A DNA stretch of 23,227 bases from a virus. Its lineage: Duplodnaviria > Heunggongvirae > Uroviricota > Caudoviricetes. Of this stretch, positions 3,215 to 20,741 are shown in pieces (the first letter of the stretch is position 1; every line of letters starts with the position of its first letter). The translations under genes and the position numbers were made by a program. The notes under the pieces are model-generated. The model saw only the letters and a program-made list of their open reading frames with translations. It did not search any database and was not told where the DNA came from. The stretch lies in IMG/VR virus record IMGVR_UViG_2565956617_000009. The stretch is one strand, 5' to 3'.

Positions 3215-3970
3215 TTAGTTGTAGCACTTCTCTATAATCTTCATACACTCCTCATGAGCTAAATCATGGCTGTCAAATTCTTTATTAAAAAAGAAGAAAA
3301 ACGCCTTCTTAACCTGAGGCATTTCAATAAAAATAAATTCATCAACCTTATGAAAGAAATGAAAACTCTTGTTTGATGTTTCAAAAACCATCAAAGAATT
3401 ATGTTTTTTATCCTTCCATTTCGACATCAGATTGCGTCGCGATTTTCTTATAATCCTGAAGACATCCTCCGGTGTCGTATCGACATTCCCCCAAAACATT
3501 GCAACCGGGAAGTTTGCAAGGAAAGGGATATAATCCCCCCCTTTATACCTGAGAAAGCGGGTCCGTAAATCCATTAATTGCAACTTAAAGCCCATGTATT
3601 GCAACCACCATATGATGCAATCATATTCATAATCTGTTAACTCATCGCCCCTCTTTTCCGTAAGAAATTTCTTCAGGTTATACTCAAACGCTCCCAGCAA
3701 ATCAGAATTGCACACTCTGCATGCTGGTACAGTGGCTTTGATGTAATGAGTTGACTGATTATTCTTTTTATTAATTAAAAGTTTTTCAGCATTTGACTCA
3801 AAGGCCCACTGAGGAATAATGTGCTCACGAGTAATATCGTCAGAACTCCCGCATAACACACATACATCAGCATTATGGTCAGCAATAATACAATCCATAA
3901 CTTTCTTTTGAGAATGCTTTACTCTTTTTCTCAAAATGGAAAATTTTTTATCCACAAACACCCATCTCAT
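3215..3970 (-). CDS. AT-rich accessory ORF (251 aa) with an HNH-type endonuclease motif, in the S-V slot (P2 orf30 position)
   Basis: Translation contains CVLCG...EHIIPQW...N...CRVCN, a CxxC...(D/E)H...N...CxxC arrangement typical of HNH nucleases. The DNA is visibly AT-rich compared with the flanking tail genes. Start ATG overlaps the S stop codon; same strand as the late operon. Confidence 0.6.
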   Translation of the reverse strand: MRWVFVDKKFSILRKRVKHSQKKVMDCIIADHNADVCVLCGSSDDITREHIIPQWAFESNAEKLLINKKNNQSTHYIKATVPACRVCNSDLLGAFEYNLKKFLTEKRGDELTDYEYDCIIWWLQYMGFKLQLMDLRTRFLRYKGGDYIPFLANFPVAMFWGNVDTTPEDVFRIIRKSRRNLMSKWKDKKHNSLMVFETSNKSFHFFHKVDEFIFIEMPQVKKAFFFFFNKEFDSHDLAHEECMKIIEKCYN

Positions 3971-4425
3971 ATAACATCTTTCGATAGAATCACTAATAAC
4001 TCCTTTTCTATCAATTGTATAGATTCCTTGTCAAAACCTAATAACTCACGAACAGGATATTCCACCACAGCACTATTACGCCCCGGCTTATCCCTAAGCC
4101 CTAATTGATGTACTCTCGCAATTCGTTGTACTCCGCTGGCAAACTCCACCACAGCCGCACTCTCGCTACCTGTTGCTTTCATAAATCGGTTTGTGCGTAA
4201 TTTCGCAAACATTTCCCGCTTTATCCGGCCTTTCTTATTTCGCACTGGCTGGTTTTTTCTCGGTATATACGGCGTACCATCCGGGGCTTTTTGTAATTTA
4301 ATTCGCTGCTGCTGGCGCTGGCGCAGTTTCTTCGCAATATCTACCGCCAGTCGCCGACGCCCTGACGGTGACAGCGATTCAATAAGTCCGGTCAGCCGGT
4401 CTTCAAAACGCTTAAACTCATTCAT
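3967..4425 (-). CDS. S: Tail completion protein gpS
   Basis: 152-aa ORF, close to P2 gpS (about 150 aa), immediately downstream of R. Confidence 0.85.
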   Translation of the reverse strand: MNEFKRFEDRLTGLIESLSPSGRRRLAVDIAKKLRQRQQQRIKLQKAPDGTPYIPRKNQPVRNKKGRIKREMFAKLRTNRFMKATGSESAAVVEFASGVQRIARVHQLGLRDKPGRNSAVVEYPVRELLGFDKESIQLIEKELLVILSKDVI

Positions 4426-6343: not shown

Positions 6344-6624
6344 TACGGTTTCCCCCTGCCCTTAAAGCGGCGCTGAATGGCAATCTCAATCACCTGATAA
6401 CCGGCGATACCCAGCATGGAGCCGATGCCGCACACCGCAGGCAGTGACAGGTCAGGAAACTGCACCAGAACAACACCGGCAACCATCGAGACAAAACCAC
6501 CGAGCAACATGCGCCCGATAAACAGACGCGGGGTGATGGGTTCACCACCGGCAAGCACCTTGCCGACAACAATCAGCACCCCAATCATGAAAAGCGACAG
6601 GACGCTTTTTTCTTCTGCTGTCAT
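6343..6624 (-). CDS. Y: Holin gpY
   Basis: 93-aa ORF with hydrophobic transmembrane stretches, same length as P2 gpY. Confidence 0.85.
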   Translation of the reverse strand: MTAEEKSVLSLFMIGVLIVVGKVLAGGEPITPRLFIGRMLLGGFVSMVAGVVLVQFPDLSLPAVCGIGSMLGIAGYQVIEIAIQRRFKGRGKP

Positions 6625-6627
6625 GCG

Positions 6628-6831
6628 TTACTCCCAAAGATTGACAGTTTCAGCCACGGGCGCGGTCTGAACGTCGGGCAGCTCGACGGCGGTGCCGTGC
6701 GGCAGCACCGCGCCCAGTTCAGCCAGTCCCGGATTTGCGGCGAGCACGGCTTCGACCACGCCCTCAGTGCGCCCGTAATACCGGACACAAATGGCGTCGA
6801 GCGTGTCGCCCTGTAGCGCAAAGGTCTTCAT
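6628..6831 (-). CDS. X: Tail protein gpX
   Basis: ORF trimmed to the ATG at rc 6829..6831 (MKTFALQGDTLDAICVRYYG...) giving 67 aa, the P2 gpX length. Start shares a TGATG overlap with the L stop. Confidence 0.8.
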   Translation of the reverse strand: MKTFALQGDTLDAICVRYYGRTEGVVEAVLAANPGLAELGAVLPHGTAVELPDVQTAPVAETVNLWE

Positions 6832-7340
6832 CAGATTTGACTCACGATGCAGCGCGGCTTGCCCTGGATGCGCGCCACCGCCCAGCGCATATCCCGCCAC
6901 AGCTCATCAATGGTGCTGTCAATGCTGTCAGCCTTCTTGTCGCCTTTCGCACTGGCATCCACGCCGCGATAACGCTCATAAAGCGACGCGGTCGCCATCG
7001 CACACACGGCGCGCTCGTAGTAAAAAACTTTGATGCTTTCACCGTCGATGTCGTCCGCAGGGACGTCCGCCAGACGCGTAAAACCGGCGGCAATTTTCTG
7101 TTCGCGGTACTCGTACAGCTCTGCATTCGTCTCCGCCATGCCTGACTTGATGGCCTCACGCAGACGGGCGGGGGCGACGGTCTGCTCAAGGCGCATACGT
7201 TCCCGGACGCGCTTCGGGGCGATATCGGGAAAAAAGAACGTGTTTTTAATCACCGGCTCGTCGCCTGCCGGTTGCGGGATGACCACCGTACCCTCACCGG
7301 ATACAGGAGCCTCCTTTCGCGGAATAATCAGCGTCATCAT
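6831..7340 (-). CDS. L: Head completion/stabilisation protein gpL
   Basis: ORF trimmed to the double-Met start (rc 7338..7340, MMTLIIPRKEAP...) giving 169 aa, the P2 gpL length. Confidence 0.85.
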   Translation of the reverse strand: MMTLIIPRKEAPVSGEGTVVIPQPAGDEPVIKNTFFFPDIAPKRVRERMRLEQTVAPARLREAIKSGMAETNAELYEYREQKIAAGFTRLADVPADDIDGESIKVFYYERAVCAMATASLYERYRGVDASAKGDKKADSIDSTIDELWRDMRWAVARIQGKPRCIVSQI

Positions 7341-7439
7341 GACTACCTCTGAAAAGTCGGGCGGTGGACGCCGGTGCAGTGTCAGGTGATTCACCGTCAC
7401 TGACCGGCGTGCCGCCCTGGCGCGGGGCGCATTCGGTTG

Positions 7440-12119: not shown

Positions 12120-13153
12120 TGAGCAAGAAAAAAGGGAAAATACCGCAACCTGCGGCAAAAAAAATGACCGCCAGCGCCCCGAAAATGGAGGCATTCACCT
12201 TTGGTGAGCCGGTGCCGGTACTCGACCGCCGTGACATTCTGGATTACGTCGAATGCATCAGTAACGGCAGATGGTATGAGCCGCCGGTCAGCTTTACCGG
12301 TCTGGCAAAAAGTCTGCGTGCTGCCGTGCATCACAGCTCACCGATTTACGTCAAACGTAATATTCTGGCCTCGACATTTATCCCGCATCCGTGGCTTTCC
12401 CAGCAGGATTTCAGCCGCTTTGTGCTGGATTTTCTGGTGTTCGGTAATGCGTTTCTGGAAAAGCGCTACAGCACCACCGGTAAGGTCATCAGACTGGAAA
12501 CCTCACCGGCAAAATATACCCGCCGTGGTGTTGAGGAGGATGTTTACTGGTGGGTGCCGTCCTTCAACGAGCCGACACCTTTCGCGCCCGGCTCCGTGTT
12601 TCATCTGCTGGAGCCGGATATTAATCAGGAGCTGTACGGCCTGCCGGAATATCTCAGCGCCCTTAACTCTGCCTGGCTGAATGAGTCGGCCACGCTGTTC
12701 CGCCGCAAGTATTACGAAAACGGCGCTCATGCCGGATATATCATGTACGTCACTGATGCCGTGCAGGACCGCAACGATATCGAAATGCTTCGCGAAAACA
12801 TGGTGAAGTCGAAAGGCCGCAACAACTTTAAAAACCTGTTTCTCTATGCCCCACAGGGGAAAGCCGACGGCATTAAAATTATCCCGCTCAGTGAAGTGGC
12901 GACGAAGGACGATTTTTTTAATATCAAAAAAGCCAGCGCCGCTGACCTGCTGGACGCGCACCGCATCCCCTTTCAGTTGATGGGCGGCAAGCCGGAGAAC
13001 GTCGGGTCGCTGGGTGATATTGAGAAAGTGGCAAAGGTCTTTGTCCGCAATGAGCTTATCCCGTTACAGGACAGGATCCGCGAGATAAACGGCTGGCTCG
13101 GTCAGGAGGTCATCCGCTTTAAAAACTACTCACTGGACACTGACAACGACTGA
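12119..13153 (+). CDS. Q: Portal (capsid vertex) protein gpQ
   Basis: 344-aa ORF, same length as P2 gpQ. Start overlaps the P stop (TGATG). Confidence 0.9.
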   Translation: MSKKKGKIPQPAAKKMTASAPKMEAFTFGEPVPVLDRRDILDYVECISNGRWYEPPVSFTGLAKSLRAAVHHSSPIYVKRNILASTFIPHPWLSQQDFSRFVLDFLVFGNAFLEKRYSTTGKVIRLETSPAKYTRRGVEEDVYWWVPSFNEPTPFAPGSVFHLLEPDINQELYGLPEYLSALNSAWLNESATLFRRKYYENGAHAGYIMYVTDAVQDRNDIEMLRENMVKSKGRNNFKNLFLYAPQGKADGIKIIPLSEVATKDDFFNIKKASAADLLDAHRIPFQLMGGKPENVGSLGDIEKVAKVFVRNELIPLQDRIREINGWLGQEVIRFKNYSLDTDND

Positions 13154-13322: not shown

Positions 13323-13341
13323 GTGCTTTCCCCGCCTCGCC
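13323..13341. other. cos site: 19-nt cohesive-end sequence of P2-type phages
   Basis: GTGCTTTCCCCGCCTCGCC on the plus strand is the reverse complement of GGCGAGGCGGGGAAAGCAC, which I recall as the P2 cohesive end. It lies downstream of Q where cos is expected. Confidence 0.8.
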
Positions 13342-13454: not shown

Positions 13455-15467
13455 TTAATGCACTTGTTGCATTGTCTCTTGAGCTTTCTCACCCTCTGGA
13501 ATTTTTATCGTATTACTATTAATTAAAGCATGAATTCGCTTATCGTTAGGCGAACGTTCAACTAGATGATCTAAGAATTCTTGCCATTGACGTTTAGCTT
13601 CAGCAAGCAGATCACCCCAAGTAAGAGTTTCAAGTCCATCCTCTTTAAGCTTTCTAACCTTTTTTAAAAATGCAGGATTTTTCTTGGCTATTTTATCAGC
13701 AACCAAATAACCAGTAGCAGTATTAAATCTTGATCCCGTAGAGCTTTCAAGATGGCCACGAAATGTGTCTACATATGTCTCAAACCTAACTAAATGATCT
13801 AAATCAATCATTAACCCTGGACGCATAAACTCAAGGATTAGCAAATGCTCACCACTCGCTAAAACCAAATCAACTCGTCCATTAAAATCTTCATCCTTAT
13901 CAAGGCCTGAATCTTTAGCTGCTTCAGCAGCCAAATCTCCGACATTTCGCTCCTTAGCGAAGGTTTCCCACTTTGGTGATATTAACCATGGGTTATTCGC
14001 AATATAATCTCGCACTGCATTTTCTAATTCACGATTTTTTATTCGTGACTCAAGTCCTATTATTGTGTCCAGCTTTGCCTTTACAGATTCAGCTGTATGC
14101 AATGCTTGTATTGTATTAGCCTCGATAAGCATAGATAGCAATTTATCGCCATCCATATCGGGTACTTCTGCAACTTGCCTGATTAACTCCTTTAACCGAC
14201 CTCCTTCCCATGCAGTAAGAACAGAATTGGCTAACTCTTTGAATTGATTTGCATTTATTTGATTAATGCTAGCCAACTTCTTAAGGGCTGTCATAATGGT
14301 TTTTTTCTCGCTTGGAGCGAGTTTTTCAATTCTTGAACTAAAGTCAGAAACTTTGTCTTCTATCAGTTTCGTTTTTTCTTCAGCCCTCCGGTCTTTCCAT
14401 ATTTTTAATAAATTGCGAATACGAGCCTTCCCCCACTCTTCAAGAGTGGCTAAATGATGATGCCCCCAATTCAACCGTTGTCGCTCAGTTGAAATAACAT
14501 CCTCATCAAATTCATCAAGGTAGTCAGCTAATACTGCACCCGTCATATATTCTGGCCCATTCTGGCTAGGTAACCCTCCTGCCAAATTAAACATAAATGG
14601 TCTTTGGGCTAATTTCCCATGAGAAAATATTGAAATACCTTGTAATTCCTCTTCCTTTATAGTTTCTTTTAAGAAGAAAACTCTCCATTTTATTTGATGG
14701 TCACCGACCATTTCTGTTCCCCATCCATCTTTATCAATCTCAGTCAATCCTTTTGGTTTTTCATCTTGTTTGTAGTCCTTAGGAAAGGACATTTCTGACT
14801 TGCTAAGAAAGTCTTCTGTAGGGATTAACTTCCCATCAATGCTCACATAAAAATCTGCTGCGGCAGCATTTACAGAGAAACGGCGAGCCATAGATGTTGC
14901 AAAAAAATCAGCTGAAATCAGGCGCTGAATTTTCAAACAAGTTAACTTAATTGTTGTACCATGTGCTTTTTTTAATTCATTGTTAGGTTCAACTCTCTCA
15001 ATCACATCGATGGTAAGTTTCGATGTATTGATATAATCATCATTTGATGAATCACGAATTTTATCAATATCTAGTACAAATGATGTTTTCTCGCCAGTAT
15101 CCTTACTAATAGTTGTTACTGTTATAACTGATGCAATACCAAAACCAGCAAATTTTCCAATTCCTTTTCTTCCCATCAGTGGACGTTTTAAATCACGGGA
15201 AAGCGTTTTTGCATTATTTTTACGCTTATCATACCCCACTGTCAGAAACTTATTCTGACATTCCTCTAGGGTCATTCCGATACCATTATCTTGAATCGTA
15301 ATTGAGAAATCGTCATGCGTAGGAAGAGTAATTTTCACCTCAGTTGCATCAGCATCCCAGGAGTTAGAAACCATTTCAGCAATAGCAGCTGTTGGACTTT
15401 GATACATTTGTATGCCCAAATGATCAATTATTCTTCCGTGGAAACTTAAAAATAAAGATTTTTCCAT
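13455..15467 (-). CDS. GHKL-superfamily (Bergerat-fold, MORC/MutL/Hsp90-like HATPase) ATPase, 670 aa, with an uncharacterised C-terminal region; candidate effector of a methyltransferase-linked system
   Basis: Motifs read from the translation: N-box EMVSNSWDA (nt 15351..15377), G1 box DNGIGM (15273..15290), G2 box GRKGIGKFAGFG (15138..15173), then GTTIKL. ATG at rc 15465..15467 lies 4 nt after the methyltransferase stop, with AGGA about 9 nt upstream. Strongly AT-rich. Confidence 0.85.
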   Translation of the reverse strand: MEKSLFLSFHGRIIDHLGIQMYQSPTAAIAEMVSNSWDADATEVKITLPTHDDFSITIQDNGIGMTLEECQNKFLTVGYDKRKNNAKTLSRDLKRPLMGRKGIGKFAGFGIASVITVTTISKDTGEKTSFVLDIDKIRDSSNDDYINTSKLTIDVIERVEPNNELKKAHGTTIKLTCLKIQRLISADFFATSMARRFSVNAAAADFYVSIDGKLIPTEDFLSKSEMSFPKDYKQDEKPKGLTEIDKDGWGTEMVGDHQIKWRVFFLKETIKEEELQGISIFSHGKLAQRPFMFNLAGGLPSQNGPEYMTGAVLADYLDEFDEDVISTERQRLNWGHHHLATLEEWGKARIRNLLKIWKDRRAEEKTKLIEDKVSDFSSRIEKLAPSEKKTIMTALKKLASINQINANQFKELANSVLTAWEGGRLKELIRQVAEVPDMDGDKLLSMLIEANTIQALHTAESVKAKLDTIIGLESRIKNRELENAVRDYIANNPWLISPKWETFAKERNVGDLAAEAAKDSGLDKDEDFNGRVDLVLASGEHLLILEFMRPGLMIDLDHLVRFETYVDTFRGHLESSTGSRFNTATGYLVADKIAKKNPAFLKKVRKLKEDGLETLTWGDLLAEAKRQWQEFLDHLVERSPNDKRIHALINSNTIKIPEGEKAQETMQQVH

Positions 15468-15471
15468 TTGC

Positions 15472-16500
15472 TTATCCTAATTCAATAAGATGTTTTTTTA
15501 TTACCTCTGCATGACGCTTGATAAATTCTGGAGGTAACGCATTACCAATCATAAGAGCTGCTCTATCTTTACCATACTTGATTGGAAAGTAATAATCCTT
15601 CGGAAAAGTTTGCAATAGAGCGGCCTCCCGCAAAGTGATCGCTCTATCTTGTACAGGATGAAGGAATCGTCCTTTAGATGGATTAGTGCAACCACTTGTT
15701 ATTGTTGGGGATACATCATCCCATTTCATGCGCCCATAAACATCCCTAAATCCATTTGGATATTTTTTATGGCACGGTAGCCAGTATTCATATGGTAAGT
15801 CAGAACGACTACCACCATCTTTTGGCACTAGCTTTATTATATTCATGACTTTTTCAGAGCGATTTTCTTTTATATTATGCAAAAAGTCATCACTATATTG
15901 AGGTAATGGTAAATCTCCAATTACATCCTTAACAGTTACTTTTTTGCTATTTTTTTTCGCTCTTGGTAAATATCCTAATCTTGAAGCCAACATTACCATA
16001 CGCCGCCGTCTCTGTGGCACTCCATAGTTAGAAGCATCTTCAATCGCAACAGAGGTTGAATCAATGAAATACCCTAACTGTTTCAATTCATCGCAAAAAA
16101 TTTTCATGCGATAATCTTTAGCTAATGCGGGCACATTTTCCAACATTACTACTTTAGGAAGAAAGTATTTAACAAATTCCAAAAACGAAAATATTAAATC
16201 ATTCCGTTCATCGGTAACCGAAGAATATTTATTCCTCGTTCTTAAGCTTGAAAAACCCTGACATGGAGGACATCCTGCAAGCAAGTCAAGTTGCCCTTGC
16301 TGGAGACCAAGTTCAATCATGATTTTTTTGGGGGACAACTCCCTTATGTCTCCCGTATACAATGATACATCAGGATGATTCTGCATATAGGTTTCAGAAA
16401 CAATAGGCTCCTTTTCGACTGCTGATATAACGTCAAAGCCAGCCATCTTAAGACCAACTGTCAGGCCACCTGCGCCGCAGAAGAGATCTATCGCTTTCAT
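15472..16500 (-). CDS. DNA (cytosine-5)-methyltransferase, 342 aa
   Basis: Canonical C5-MTase motifs: motif I FCGAGG (16465..16482), catalytic PCQ in GCPPCQGFS (Cys codon 16261..16263), motif VI ENV (16132..16140), motif VIII QRRRR, C-terminal GNALPP. AAGGA lies just upstream of the ATG at rc 16498..16500. AT-rich. Confidence 0.9.
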   Translation of the reverse strand: MKAIDLFCGAGGLTVGLKMAGFDVISAVEKEPIVSETYMQNHPDVSLYTGDIRELSPKKIMIELGLQQGQLDLLAGCPPCQGFSSLRTRNKYSSVTDERNDLIFSFLEFVKYFLPKVVMLENVPALAKDYRMKIFCDELKQLGYFIDSTSVAIEDASNYGVPQRRRRMVMLASRLGYLPRAKKNSKKVTVKDVIGDLPLPQYSDDFLHNIKENRSEKVMNIIKLVPKDGGSRSDLPYEYWLPCHKKYPNGFRDVYGRMKWDDVSPTITSGCTNPSKGRFLHPVQDRAITLREAALLQTFPKDYYFPIKYGKDRAALMIGNALPPEFIKRHAEVIKKHLIELG

Positions 16501-16551
16501 AAAATCCTTAACAAACCTAAACCAATATATAACATTGAAAAATATTGGATG

Positions 16552-16580
16552 AGTATAAATGACTCTCCATGTCGCAGCAA
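16552..16580 (-). promoter_or_regulatory. Candidate sigma70-type promoter for the methyltransferase-ATPase operon
   Basis: On the minus strand TTGCTG (-35, plus coords 16575..16580), a 17-nt spacer, then TATACT (-10, 16552..16557), about 50 nt upstream of the methyltransferase ATG in an AT-rich leader. Confidence 0.3.
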
Positions 16581-16767
16581 AAGTATATTTGTGAAAGACA
16601 GCTCAGATAGGAGCAGAGCACCAAACATATCGGATTGTCGATGCATGAACGAGGAATCACCATTTCTCTAATACATACTCTAACTCTGAAGAGTAAGTTC
16701 TTGTGTATGTTCATTTCACTTCCAGAGCCAATGCTACTCAACCTCATCAGCCCTGAAAGCAAAAGAT

Positions 16768-16992
16768 TCACGGCTGACGGGATTCTCGACCATCTGCGGA
16801 TGACGATGCAACTCTATACTGACCGATATCGTTAAGCCGCCCGTAATTATCCCGGACTATTTCGGCACACCCGACCAGCTCGTCAGGCGTCAGATTTTCG
16901 TTGACCATAATCTGCTGTAGACGGTGAACAATAGCCATCAGCTTGATATTTTTAGTGTTATGTTGCGGTATCTCGCCTGGTATTCTGTGCAT
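16768..16992 (-). CDS. Small hypothetical protein (74 aa), translationally coupled to the upstream ORF
   Basis: ATG at rc 16990..16992 overlaps the stop of the preceding ORF (TAATG). No recognisable motif. Confidence 0.4.
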   Translation of the reverse strand: MHRIPGEIPQHNTKNIKLMAIVHRLQQIMVNENLTPDELVGCAEIVRDNYGRLNDIGQYRVASSSADGRESRQP

Positions 16993-17444
16993 TATCCAAG
17001 CCACCCGTTTTGCTTTGCACGCTCAATCTGTTCATCTGAATAGCTCCACATCCCATCCGCAGCAACCACTGCCCCGCCAGACAGCCCTGTCACTGACTCA
17101 TACATAACAGCAAGACCGAGCTGATGCATAATTTCATGATTAATTCTGAATACCAGACCACGCTCACCAAGCTCTTTCCAGTTCACAATCTCATATGCGC
17201 CTGTATTAAGCAGCTCAATACTTAGCAAGACATAATCTTCCAGCCAGTCTGACAGGTCAGTAACATCTGTTATCCGGGCTTCAACCTTTCGCCCCGTATA
17301 CACACCCTGCACCCATTCATGCAAAATCAACGTGTCCCCGCGCTCATAATTACGGTCATTTTTCCGAAACTCTGCACGTTTCTTTCCTTCCAGCACAAGG
17401 TCGAAATATTTTGCGTGCAGCTTTACCTCGTGAATTTTTGCCAT
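16992..17444 (-). CDS. ASCH/DUF3850-like small protein downstream of A (P2 orf91 position), with a C-terminal extension
   Basis: Start MAKIHEVKLHAKYFDLVLEGKKRAEFRKNDRNYERGDTLILHEW resembles the ASCH-like/DUF3850 pattern as I recall it. ATG at rc 17442..17444, 19 nt upstream of the A stop. About 150 aa, longer than I would expect for this family. Confidence 0.55.
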   Translation of the reverse strand: MAKIHEVKLHAKYFDLVLEGKKRAEFRKNDRNYERGDTLILHEWVQGVYTGRKVEARITDVTDLSDWLEDYVLLSIELLNTGAYEIVNWKELGERGLVFRINHEIMHQLGLAVMYESVTGLSGGAVVAADGMWSYSDEQIERAKQNGWLG

Positions 17445-19729: not shown

Positions 19730-19994
19730 ATGAGCCAAAAGCCTCTGAACAACGCTTGCTGAGTCGCTCAACCTGCGCGTTTAAATCAGCAAAAGACTTT
19801 GCGCTTCCGGTCAGAATATCGTGATGCATCAGGCCGGAAACGAGCTGGTTTAATTTCGGGTAATAACCAACCACCGACAGCCATTCCTGACCGGCGTTTT
19901 TACCGCTTTCCGCTCTCTTTTTCTCGTGGAGAATAAACTGAAAGCTGTCACTGGTAACGACATAACGTTCGCCAATTTCAATACAAATACTCAT
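19719..19994 (-). CDS. Early-operon small protein (P2 orf83 position)
   Basis: 91-aa ORF immediately upstream of A, overlapping its start, in the cox-B-A operon. Confidence 0.6.
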   Translation of the reverse strand: MSICIEIGERYVVTSDSFQFILHEKKRAESGKNAGQEWLSVVGYYPKLNQLVSGLMHHDILTGSAKSFADLNAQVERLSKRCSEAFGSYGR

Positions 19995-20215
19995 GCCGTT
20001 CTCCGGTAATGTTTGTTTTTTGCTTCAAAGACTGACTGACAGGAAACACAACGCGTGGCTGACGGATAAGCCGCACGACGGGCAGCAGGTATTGGCGCGT
20101 CACACTCTTCGCAAACCAGCGCAGAAGCACCGCAATGTTTTACCCTTGCCGCGTTAATCTGACGCTCCAGTAATTCAGCCTGTTGTTCCTGAATAAAATC
20201 TACGTTGTCCGGCAT
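19991..20215 (-). CDS. TraR/DksA-family C4 zinc-finger protein (P2 orf82 position)
   Basis: 74-aa ORF with CxxC...17 residues...CxxC (CEECDAPIPAARRAAYPSATRCVSCQ), typical of DksA/TraR-type zinc fingers. Confidence 0.7.
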   Translation of the reverse strand: MPDNVDFIQEQQAELLERQINAARVKHCGASALVCEECDAPIPAARRAAYPSATRCVSCQSVFEAKNKHYRRTA

Positions 20216-20520
20216 TACCAGCTCCTTTTGTCGTTAAGTTTTTTAAATTCATCAGCGTAATAGCTGGCGATTTCTGTCGTTAATTTTGTCAGTTCATCCA
20301 CGGAGGAGATTTTCTTGTGAAATACAGCGTGTTTAACAAGTAAATTGACCACATCAGACAGGAGATTTAATTCGTTCTGATAAATCGCGATAACAGATTC
20401 AGTTATTTCGCGTTTTTCTTTATCAAGACCAAGTTGAATAAGAGATAAATCGCCATTTTTCATAACGGCGATTTTTAAGGCGTTATTCAGTAATACAACT
20501 GAACGAGAACAGGACATCAA
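20215..20520 (-). CDS. Early-operon small protein (P2 orf81 position)
   Basis: 101-aa ORF, tightly packed with its neighbours in the early operon. Confidence 0.55.
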
Positions 20521-20741
20521 AGCACCTCCCCGCGAGACAATCCGATATTGTGAAATTTTTCCGACTCCTGACTGAGCAGCTCGACTATCTCCACGCGGGA
20601 TAACTCCGCCTTTGTGATGTGGCGAATCATGGCGTCAAGATGAGAAGAAAAGCGCGTCGCAGCATCGGCCTGTGCTTCGGTTCTGGCCTGTTGCAGCAGT
20701 AATGCGTATTTACCGCACTGATTTTCAGAAACTGTATGCAT
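20517..20741 (-). CDS. Early-operon small protein (P2 orf80 position)
   Basis: 74-aa ORF overlapping the next ORF by 4 nt, downstream of B. Confidence 0.55.

Follow-up and report, generated by a model that had tools for sequence, protein, structure and literature searches.

A putative GHKL-nuclease restriction-modification cassette in the cos-proximal hotspot of a P2-like prophage

What is a cytosine-5 (C5) DNA methyltransferase gene doing next to the gene of a large GHKL ATPase in a P2-like prophage, and does the pair represent a new kind of phage defence? The question is raised by a stretch of 23,227 nucleotides (nt) from a tailed phage (Caudoviricetes; IMG/VR record IMGVR_UViG_2565956617_000009), the whole of which is called the window here. 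An initial annotation, made from the letters of the sequence, described positions 13455-16500 as a tightly coupled two-gene operon in the slot where P2 carries tin and old, and proposed it as an undescribed defence module resembling restriction-modification systems. Much of this was borne out, as both open reading frames (ORFs) are found on the minus strand at these positions with a gap of exactly 4 nt (Table 1), and a tightly coupled, modification-based defence cassette in the A-Q/cos hotspot of P2 is supported. It is likely that the pair is a two-gene restriction-modification system of the HgiDII/BbrUII-like class, carried as cargo of the P2-like prophage, in which methylated DNA would be spared and unmarked DNA would be cut. 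The module cannot be called undescribed, since it has a full-length family homologue in NF050001, is matched by the REase_II and MTase_II models of PADLOC, resembles the GHKL enzyme R.HgiDII (PMC2441816) and has been tabulated among phage hotspot cargo (PMC9122126, Table S5).

Two proteins of a known restriction family

The methyltransferase is complete, as had been claimed. It matches the whole Pfam DNA_methylase profile (1e-58, profile positions 1-324 of 324), TIGR00675 dcm (6e-44) and the PADLOC MTase_II model PDLC03378 (2.8e-82), and motifs I, IV, VI, VIII, IX and X were all found, giving a complete catalytic set (FCGAGG at residue 7, PPC80Q with the correctly annotated catalytic Cys80, ENV at 121, QRR at 163, REAA at 291 and GNA at 319). 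Its matches in the PDB (DNMT1, M.HaeIII and M.HhaI) span the catalytic core alone and give no recognition sequence, and the three GTCGAC sites in the window are a count that is uninformative on the specificity of the methylase.

The partner was initially annotated as a GHKL ATPase of 670 amino acids (aa), which is correct for its N-terminal part but misses the predicted nuclease domain formed by the C-terminal ~190 residues. The HATPase_c_3 domain (4e-25, aa 25-171) contains the E31xxxN35 motif and a DNGIGM motif beginning at residue 60, and behind the ATP-binding motifs of the Bergerat fold (ExxxN, DxGxG and a G-rich lid) lies an S5-like transducer domain. Structurally, the N-terminal 300 residues are closest to the eukaryotic proteins MORC3, SMCHD1 and MORC2. 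A Pfam scan of 35 members of the window protein's clade at E<=1 gave no match in the C-terminal half, and the nuclease assignment therefore needed structure prediction. Structure prediction confidently gives an intact PD-(D/E)xK fold in this region, and the AlphaFold 2 (AF2) model places a series of helices before it (337-374, 385-399, 406-421, 426-434 and 440-477; predicted local distance difference test score, pLDDT, about 70-90), which could be assigned to no family. A sequence search of the PDB with the 670-aa protein matched the GHKL N-terminus only (HtpG and MutL, about 1e-4), so there is no solved relative.

The NCBIfam family of BbrUII/HgiDII restriction enzymes (NF050001) matches the 670-aa protein with an E-value of 6.4e-98, in one stretch from residue 13 to residue 637 on profile positions 9-647 of 659, that is, with end-to-end homology which includes the C-terminal domain. 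Two PADLOC models of REase_II also match (3e-53 and 5e-33). Together with the predicted structure (a MORC/MutL-type ATPase module plus a PD-(D/E)xK nuclease), the NCBIfam and PADLOC matches indicate that the protein is a MORC-like ATPase fused to a nuclease of the restriction-endonuclease fold, and the earlier view of the pair as restriction-modification-like and MORC-like was right. The PADLOC and Pfam profile searches, which had been proposed together with that view, returned REase_II, MTase_II, DNA_methylase and HATPase_c_3.

Table 1. Positions in the window of the cassette, its parts and the adjoining cos site
Feature	Position	Strand	Remarks
C5 cytosine DNA methyltransferase, modification subunit	15472..16500	-	342 aa; Pfam, PADLOC, TIGR00675, motifs
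Putative restriction subunit, whole ORF	13455..15467	-	670 aa; HATPase_c_3 and NCBIfam match
Putative restriction subunit aa 1-335, MORC-type GHKL + S5-like ATPase module	14463..15467	-	
Putative restriction subunit aa 336-477, predicted linker or clamp of long helices (coiled-coil-like)	14037..14462	-	AF2 model
Putative restriction subunit aa 478-650, predicted PD-(D/E)xK restriction-endonuclease-fold domain	13518..14036	-	E506, D533, E546, M548, H558, R561
Methylase/restriction gene junction	15468..15478	-	Read from sequence
Candidate cassette promoter	16552..16580	-	TTGCTG 16580..16575, 17-nt spacer, TATACT 16557..16552 (inference only)
P2-type cos cohesive-end 19-mer	13323..13341	.	One occurrence; 114 bp from cassette stop codon

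Restriction enzymes of this kind have been described before. In R.HgiDII, a Type II enzyme, a GHKL domain at the N-terminus precedes a C-terminal domain whose fold was then unassigned (Orlowski and Bujnicki 2008, PMC2441816). M.HgiDII is an experimentally characterised 5-methylcytosine (m5C) methyltransferase for GTCGAC, with M.BbrUII as a homologue (PMC5867850), and in B. breve UCC2003 transformation is hampered by three characterised restriction-modification systems, of which BbrUII is one. Like these SalI isoschizomers, which recognise GTCGAC, the window pair consists of an m5C methyltransferase and a putative restriction enzyme of ~650-670 aa that begins with a GHKL domain, and the sequence homology extends over the full length of the 670-aa protein. 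It differs from them in that the window protein belongs to a sister clade, under the equivalog cut-off of the family, and in having a P2-like phage as its carrier. When plasmids were searched with tblastn for records annotated as BbrUII/HgiDII, every match was annotated as 'ATP-binding protein'.

In a system of this class, the methyltransferase would place 5-methylcytosine on a specific sequence in the DNA of the host and the prophage. The 670-aa protein would be the restriction endonuclease, its PD-(D/E)xK domain cutting incoming DNA that is without the methyl mark; cleavage would be sequence-specific and blocked by methylation, for which the conserved methylase linkage and the co-divergence of the two partners (see below) give indirect support. 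The MORC-like GHKL+S5 head, joined to the nuclease via the helical arm, probably dimerises on ATP as in MORC proteins, MutL and topoisomerases, and the nuclease may be gated by ATP. We know of no biochemical test of the role of the ATPase in GHKL/MORC-nuclease restriction enzymes. The lysogen would thereby be shielded from unrelated phages and plasmids, and the prophage may be stabilised as well.

The junction of the two genes fits this scheme. An AGGA Shine-Dalgarno sequence (15478..15475) lies inside the 3' end of the methylase gene and is followed by its stop codon TAA (15474..15472), a GCAA spacer (15471..15468) and the ATG at 15467. This layout suggests that translation of the genes is coupled and that the methylase is made first, and in a newly entered cell the methylase-first order, the short gap and the internal Shine-Dalgarno sequence would put protection before restriction.

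Linkage to methylases and relationship to Shedu nucleases

The family is large: 1,900 of the scored candidate proteins reach E<=1e-5, and among the matches listed, all those past the closest 16 are ~50% identical to the window protein. Its genomic neighbourhoods were studied in 82 genome-derived loci, 80 from scanning a single genome for each species (bacterial, with a few archaeal) and two from contig look-ups. A C5 methylase gene is directly adjacent in 58 of them, and 65 of 81 homologous loci fetched from genomes have one at a distance of no more than 5 kb. Of the 52 loci in the window's clade (>=42% identity), it is adjacent in 33, elsewhere within 5 kb in seven and not found in 12, one of which is without upstream sequence; in the distant clade (24-30% identity, 30 loci) the corresponding numbers are 25, zero and five. 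All of the full-length viral loci (18/18) have the methylase adjacent. The two partners have also diverged together, the identities of the restriction and methylase proteins to the window pair being correlated (Spearman 0.52, p 4e-5, n=57). Vsr homologues are frequent near the family loci, located between the methylase and the restriction gene in two loci (L010 and L012), and in Paraburkholderia the order is integrase, methylase, restriction enzyme and Vsr.

Similar neighbourhoods were noticed by Iyer, Abhiman and Aravind (2008), who reported that prokaryotic MORC/paraMORC ATPases are encoded alongside cytosine methylases and Vsr in restriction-modification operons, and described a paraMORC3 group with a fused nuclease of the restriction-endonuclease fold. 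The window pair shares with these predicted operons a GHKL+S5 ATPase in the company of a cytosine methylase. Many of the operons have a separate superfamily II (SF-II) helicase and a separate nuclease, whereas the window has one fused polypeptide and no helicase. According to that report, the paraMORC3 proteins mostly stand alone and carry E-D-ExK residues, while in the window protein the predicted fold comes with E, D and E but no K.

Some of the results weigh against a restriction-modification system of the HgiDII/BbrUII-like class. The window protein reaches 329 bits on NF050001, under the equivalog cut-off of 550 bits, and ten further homologues from both clades likewise fall below it (155-369 bits), which means that the recognition sequence and specificity of HgiDII are not transferable to the window pair. 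The initial annotation had named a match of both proteins to a characterised system as evidence against its novelty, and such a match thus exists at the level of the family but not at that of the equivalog. For eleven close homologues, the flanks were complete to 5 kb on either side and contained no C5 methylase. VcSduA, a standalone GHKL+DUF4263 protein for which defence against T1-like phages was shown in 2025 and which was equated with paraMORC3 / Shedu type I-D, acts without any methylase. The canonical lysine of the ExK motif is replaced by a hydrophobic residue (M/I/V/L) in 50/50 sequences of the window's clade, so nuclease activity is not guaranteed. Finally, a promoter and terminator scan gave no signal above the shuffled background and nothing marking the ends of the operon.

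The methylase-less relatives could mean that the GHKL-nuclease protein is, as in Shedu, a self-contained, ATP-controlled immune nuclease which senses a cue other than methylation, and that the methylase is an independent phage gene protecting phage DNA from other restriction systems. The domain order of GHKL+S5, helical middle and PD-(D/E)xK nuclease is the same in the window protein and in VcSduA, whose defence requires both ATPase (E27) and nuclease (K557) residues. Four standalone relatives of about 590-610 aa (L078:4914-6695, L079:4866-6707, L081:1996-3759 and L082:4992-6752) are 24-25% identical to the window protein over about 535-610 residues, carry HATPase_c_3 and SduA_C domains, and have no C5 methylase in their 2-5 kb flanks; they look like members of the VcSduA / paraMORC3 / Shedu type I-D group. 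Seven of the eleven methylase-less close homologues come from actinomycetes, and two of them, one in Streptomyces and one in Actinacidiphila (L016 and L017), adjoin an AspBHI-like m5C-dependent restriction enzyme.

We nevertheless consider a Shedu-like nuclease with an unrelated methylase improbable here. VcSduA acts alone, whereas the window protein is coupled to a C5 methylase in one operon across 4 nt, and the adjacency of the methylase in most genome-derived loci and in every full-length viral locus, the frequent Vsr and the co-divergence of the partners also speak against it. The SduA_C domain (PF14082) follows a gradient, with L078 and L082 (both ~590 aa and aligning over most of the window protein) passing the Pfam cut-off, the methylase-linked clade with K and Q in its active site (the K/Q clade, see below) scoring weakly (21-24 bits), and none of the 35 members of the window's clade showing the domain even at E<=1. 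The window protein is distinguished from VcSduA by having no detectable SduA_C/DUF4263 signature as well as no catalytic lysine, and its PADLOC matches are to REase_II models, not to SduA. At the same time, the gradient indicates that the classical GHKL restriction enzymes and the GHKL-Shedu nucleases are homologous members of a single family, some having a methylase and others not. The family thus joins HgiDII and VcSduA by full-length homology, and the eukaryotic MORC ATPases by structure.

The nuclease active site

Returning to the restriction-modification reading, one point against it is the missing lysine, and the active site was compared in an alignment of 75 full-length homologues (50 from the window's clade and 25 distant ones; the sequences of R.HgiDII and R.BbrUII are not in it). 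The GHKL residues E31, N35, D38, D60, G62, G64, K101 and K285 are invariant in all 75, as are the acidic nuclease residues D533 and E546, and E506 is conserved in the 50 sequences of the window's clade. The 25 distant sequences have K at the ExK position (E-[IFL]-K-R, mostly EIKRP), Q in motif IV and a residue other than H at 558, and fit motifs III and IV of Shedu/NucS. The window protein has M548 where the canonical lysine is expected (E-F-M), and in its clade the hydrophobic residue (EFMRP) goes together with R561 in motif IV and an invariant H558. Loss of the lysine and presence of H558 and R561 go together without exception (50/50 in the window's clade and 0/25 in the distant clades), and for this reason the catalytic basic residue looks relocated rather than decayed. 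Judging from the alignment, R561 and H558 may take over the role of the lost lysine. The E-F-M-R-P and H558/R561 of the window's clade, against the E-I-K-R-P and Q of the other clades in the alignment, also set it apart within the HgiDII/BbrUII family.

A different consequence of the lost lysine would be that the protein does not cut at all and is a MORC-like, ATP-driven DNA clamp or compactor, which reads methylation and silences or blocks unmethylated DNA. The replacement of K548 throughout the clade and the structural closeness of the N-terminal 300 residues to MORC3, SMCHD1 and MORC2 would agree with such a protein. We find it very hard to believe in view of the invariant D533 and E546, the E506 of the whole clade, a covariation that looks like relocation, a domain that is confidently modelled as an intact PD-(D/E)xK fold, and a linkage to Vsr and methylase that is typical of cutting systems.

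If the protein is a restriction enzyme that cuts, as we prefer, it could still work in an unusual way. With Met at the ExK position, invariant H558/R561 and a MORC-type ATPase that is conserved throughout, the window's clade might be an ATP-gated clamp nuclease and not an ordinary Type IIP enzyme, loading on DNA without the cognate m5C and pairing two FokI/NucS-like cleavage domains by GHKL dimerisation. We regard this as speculative and rather unlikely. If true, it would be a mechanistic bridge between the classical restriction enzymes, the Shedu type I-D nucleases and the eukaryotic MORCs, and the methylase-less copies of actinomycetes would be the same engine re-wired to another cue of self and non-self.

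As a defence system the cassette adds little to what is known, because tools of the PADLOC type should call it Type II restriction-modification, NCBIfam names the family and the hotspot arrangement has been tabulated. The parts that appear not to have been described previously include the gradient of the Shedu signature, the close homologues that lack a methylase and the rewired nuclease active site of the window's clade, which is a large one with hundreds of homologues at about 50% identity. The cassette is a natural, compact (3.1 kb) and phage-borne representative of the GHKL/MORC-nuclease restriction enzymes, and the family could be a tractable model for the control of a DNA-acting effector by a MORC-type ATPase in response to cytosine methylation.

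Position in the P2 hotspot and movement of the cassette

The placement of the pair in the P2 tin/old slot was also confirmed. The cassette occupies the interval bounded by portal gene Q and by replication gene A on a P2-family prophage. The terminase gene P and the portal gene Q end at 13153, and the reverse complement of GGCGAGGCGGGGAAAGCAC, which we take to be the 19-nt cohesive-end sequence of P2, occurs once in the window (13323-13341). The linear record of Yersinia phage P37, an isolated phage that carries the cassette at 99.9% identity, begins exactly at window position 13323. On the 5' side of the cassette there are a 78-aa ORF, a DUF3850/ASCH gene and the replication gene A.

The A-Q locus adjoining cos is a published defence hotspot of P2 (Rousset et al. 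2022, PMC9122126), and Table S5 of that paper lists the same arrangement with the same RefSeq proteins (WP_023156285 and WP_023156284), given as a domain string only and not among the systems tested. In position, the cassette behaves as cargo of the gpA-gpQ hotspot, being located between A and Q, next to cos and variable across P2-like phages. It shares this locus with the old and tin genes of P2 and differs from them in mechanism, Old being an ATPase-TOPRIM nuclease and Tin targeting T-even phages. A literature search on the protein accessions and on phage P37 returned nothing relevant.

The cassette is rare in E. coli, as it was found in only eight of 5,426 complete genomes, with its flanks matched in 2,192. 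The GC (guanine-cytosine) content of the cassette is 0.34-0.41 against ~0.55 in its flanks. Ten of the 18 full-length viral loci are P2-like contigs in which the cassette, at 86-100% identity, sits between A and Q although the backbones have diverged (63-99% identity for Q), which points to movement of the methylase-restriction pair as a unit. It seems to bring its own expression signals. The ~95 nt on the 5' side of the methylase start (window 16505-16600, minus strand) are kept in six P2-like carriers of the cassette (the window compared with L085, L086, L088, L089 and L095, at about 2870-2975), and farther upstream the sequences of the carriers are unrelated. The block contains TTGCTG-N17-TATACT and the AAGGA ribosome-binding site of the methylase (16509..16505), which suggests that it is the left boundary of the cassette and that the cassette has a promoter of its own; this promoter is proposed from the conservation only, the candidate being below the threshold of the consensus scan.

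A cassette that moves in one piece, together with a conserved upstream block of its own, could also be selected mainly for killing cells that have lost it, so that the prophage or the cassette is stabilised and phage defence is a side effect. Type II restriction-modification systems are classical addiction modules. As the main selected role we give addiction a low probability, because the cargo of this hotspot has repeatedly been anti-phage, and addiction is compatible with defence and does not exclude it.

A controller (C) protein was sought near the cassette, and the 78-aa ORF (17004..16768) has no helix-turn-helix match and is part of the conserved P2 backbone. An 84-aa ORF (16771..16517) was considered as another candidate and looks non-coding.

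The early region differs between carriers of the same cassette. In the record of phage P37, a gene of the PAPS-reductase family (6410-7417; L083:6410-6678) is annotated directly 5' of gene A, and no ORF of at least 110 aa starts in the equivalent stretch of the window (19732-20739). In a fully identical E. coli prophage, DUF5405 and TraR genes are found in place of the PAPS-reductase-family gene.

At the other end of the window, a 251-aa ORF on the minus strand (3215-3970) has a GC content of 0.37-0.43 against ~0.57 in the flanks, its neighbours being the tail-completion gene S (3967..4425, Phage_tail_S 7e-31) on one side and the baseplate genes on the other. The ORF had no Pfam match above the threshold (a faint HNH_5, 0.008) and no PADLOC match. 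Its site is presumably the 'orf30' position of P2, and it may be a second cargo slot of the prophage. Further combinations of GHKL and methylase genes in phage and satellite hotspots are listed in Tables S1 and S6 of PMC9122126, where the table of P4-satellite hotspots includes a standalone HATPase_c_3 protein (WP_089563614).

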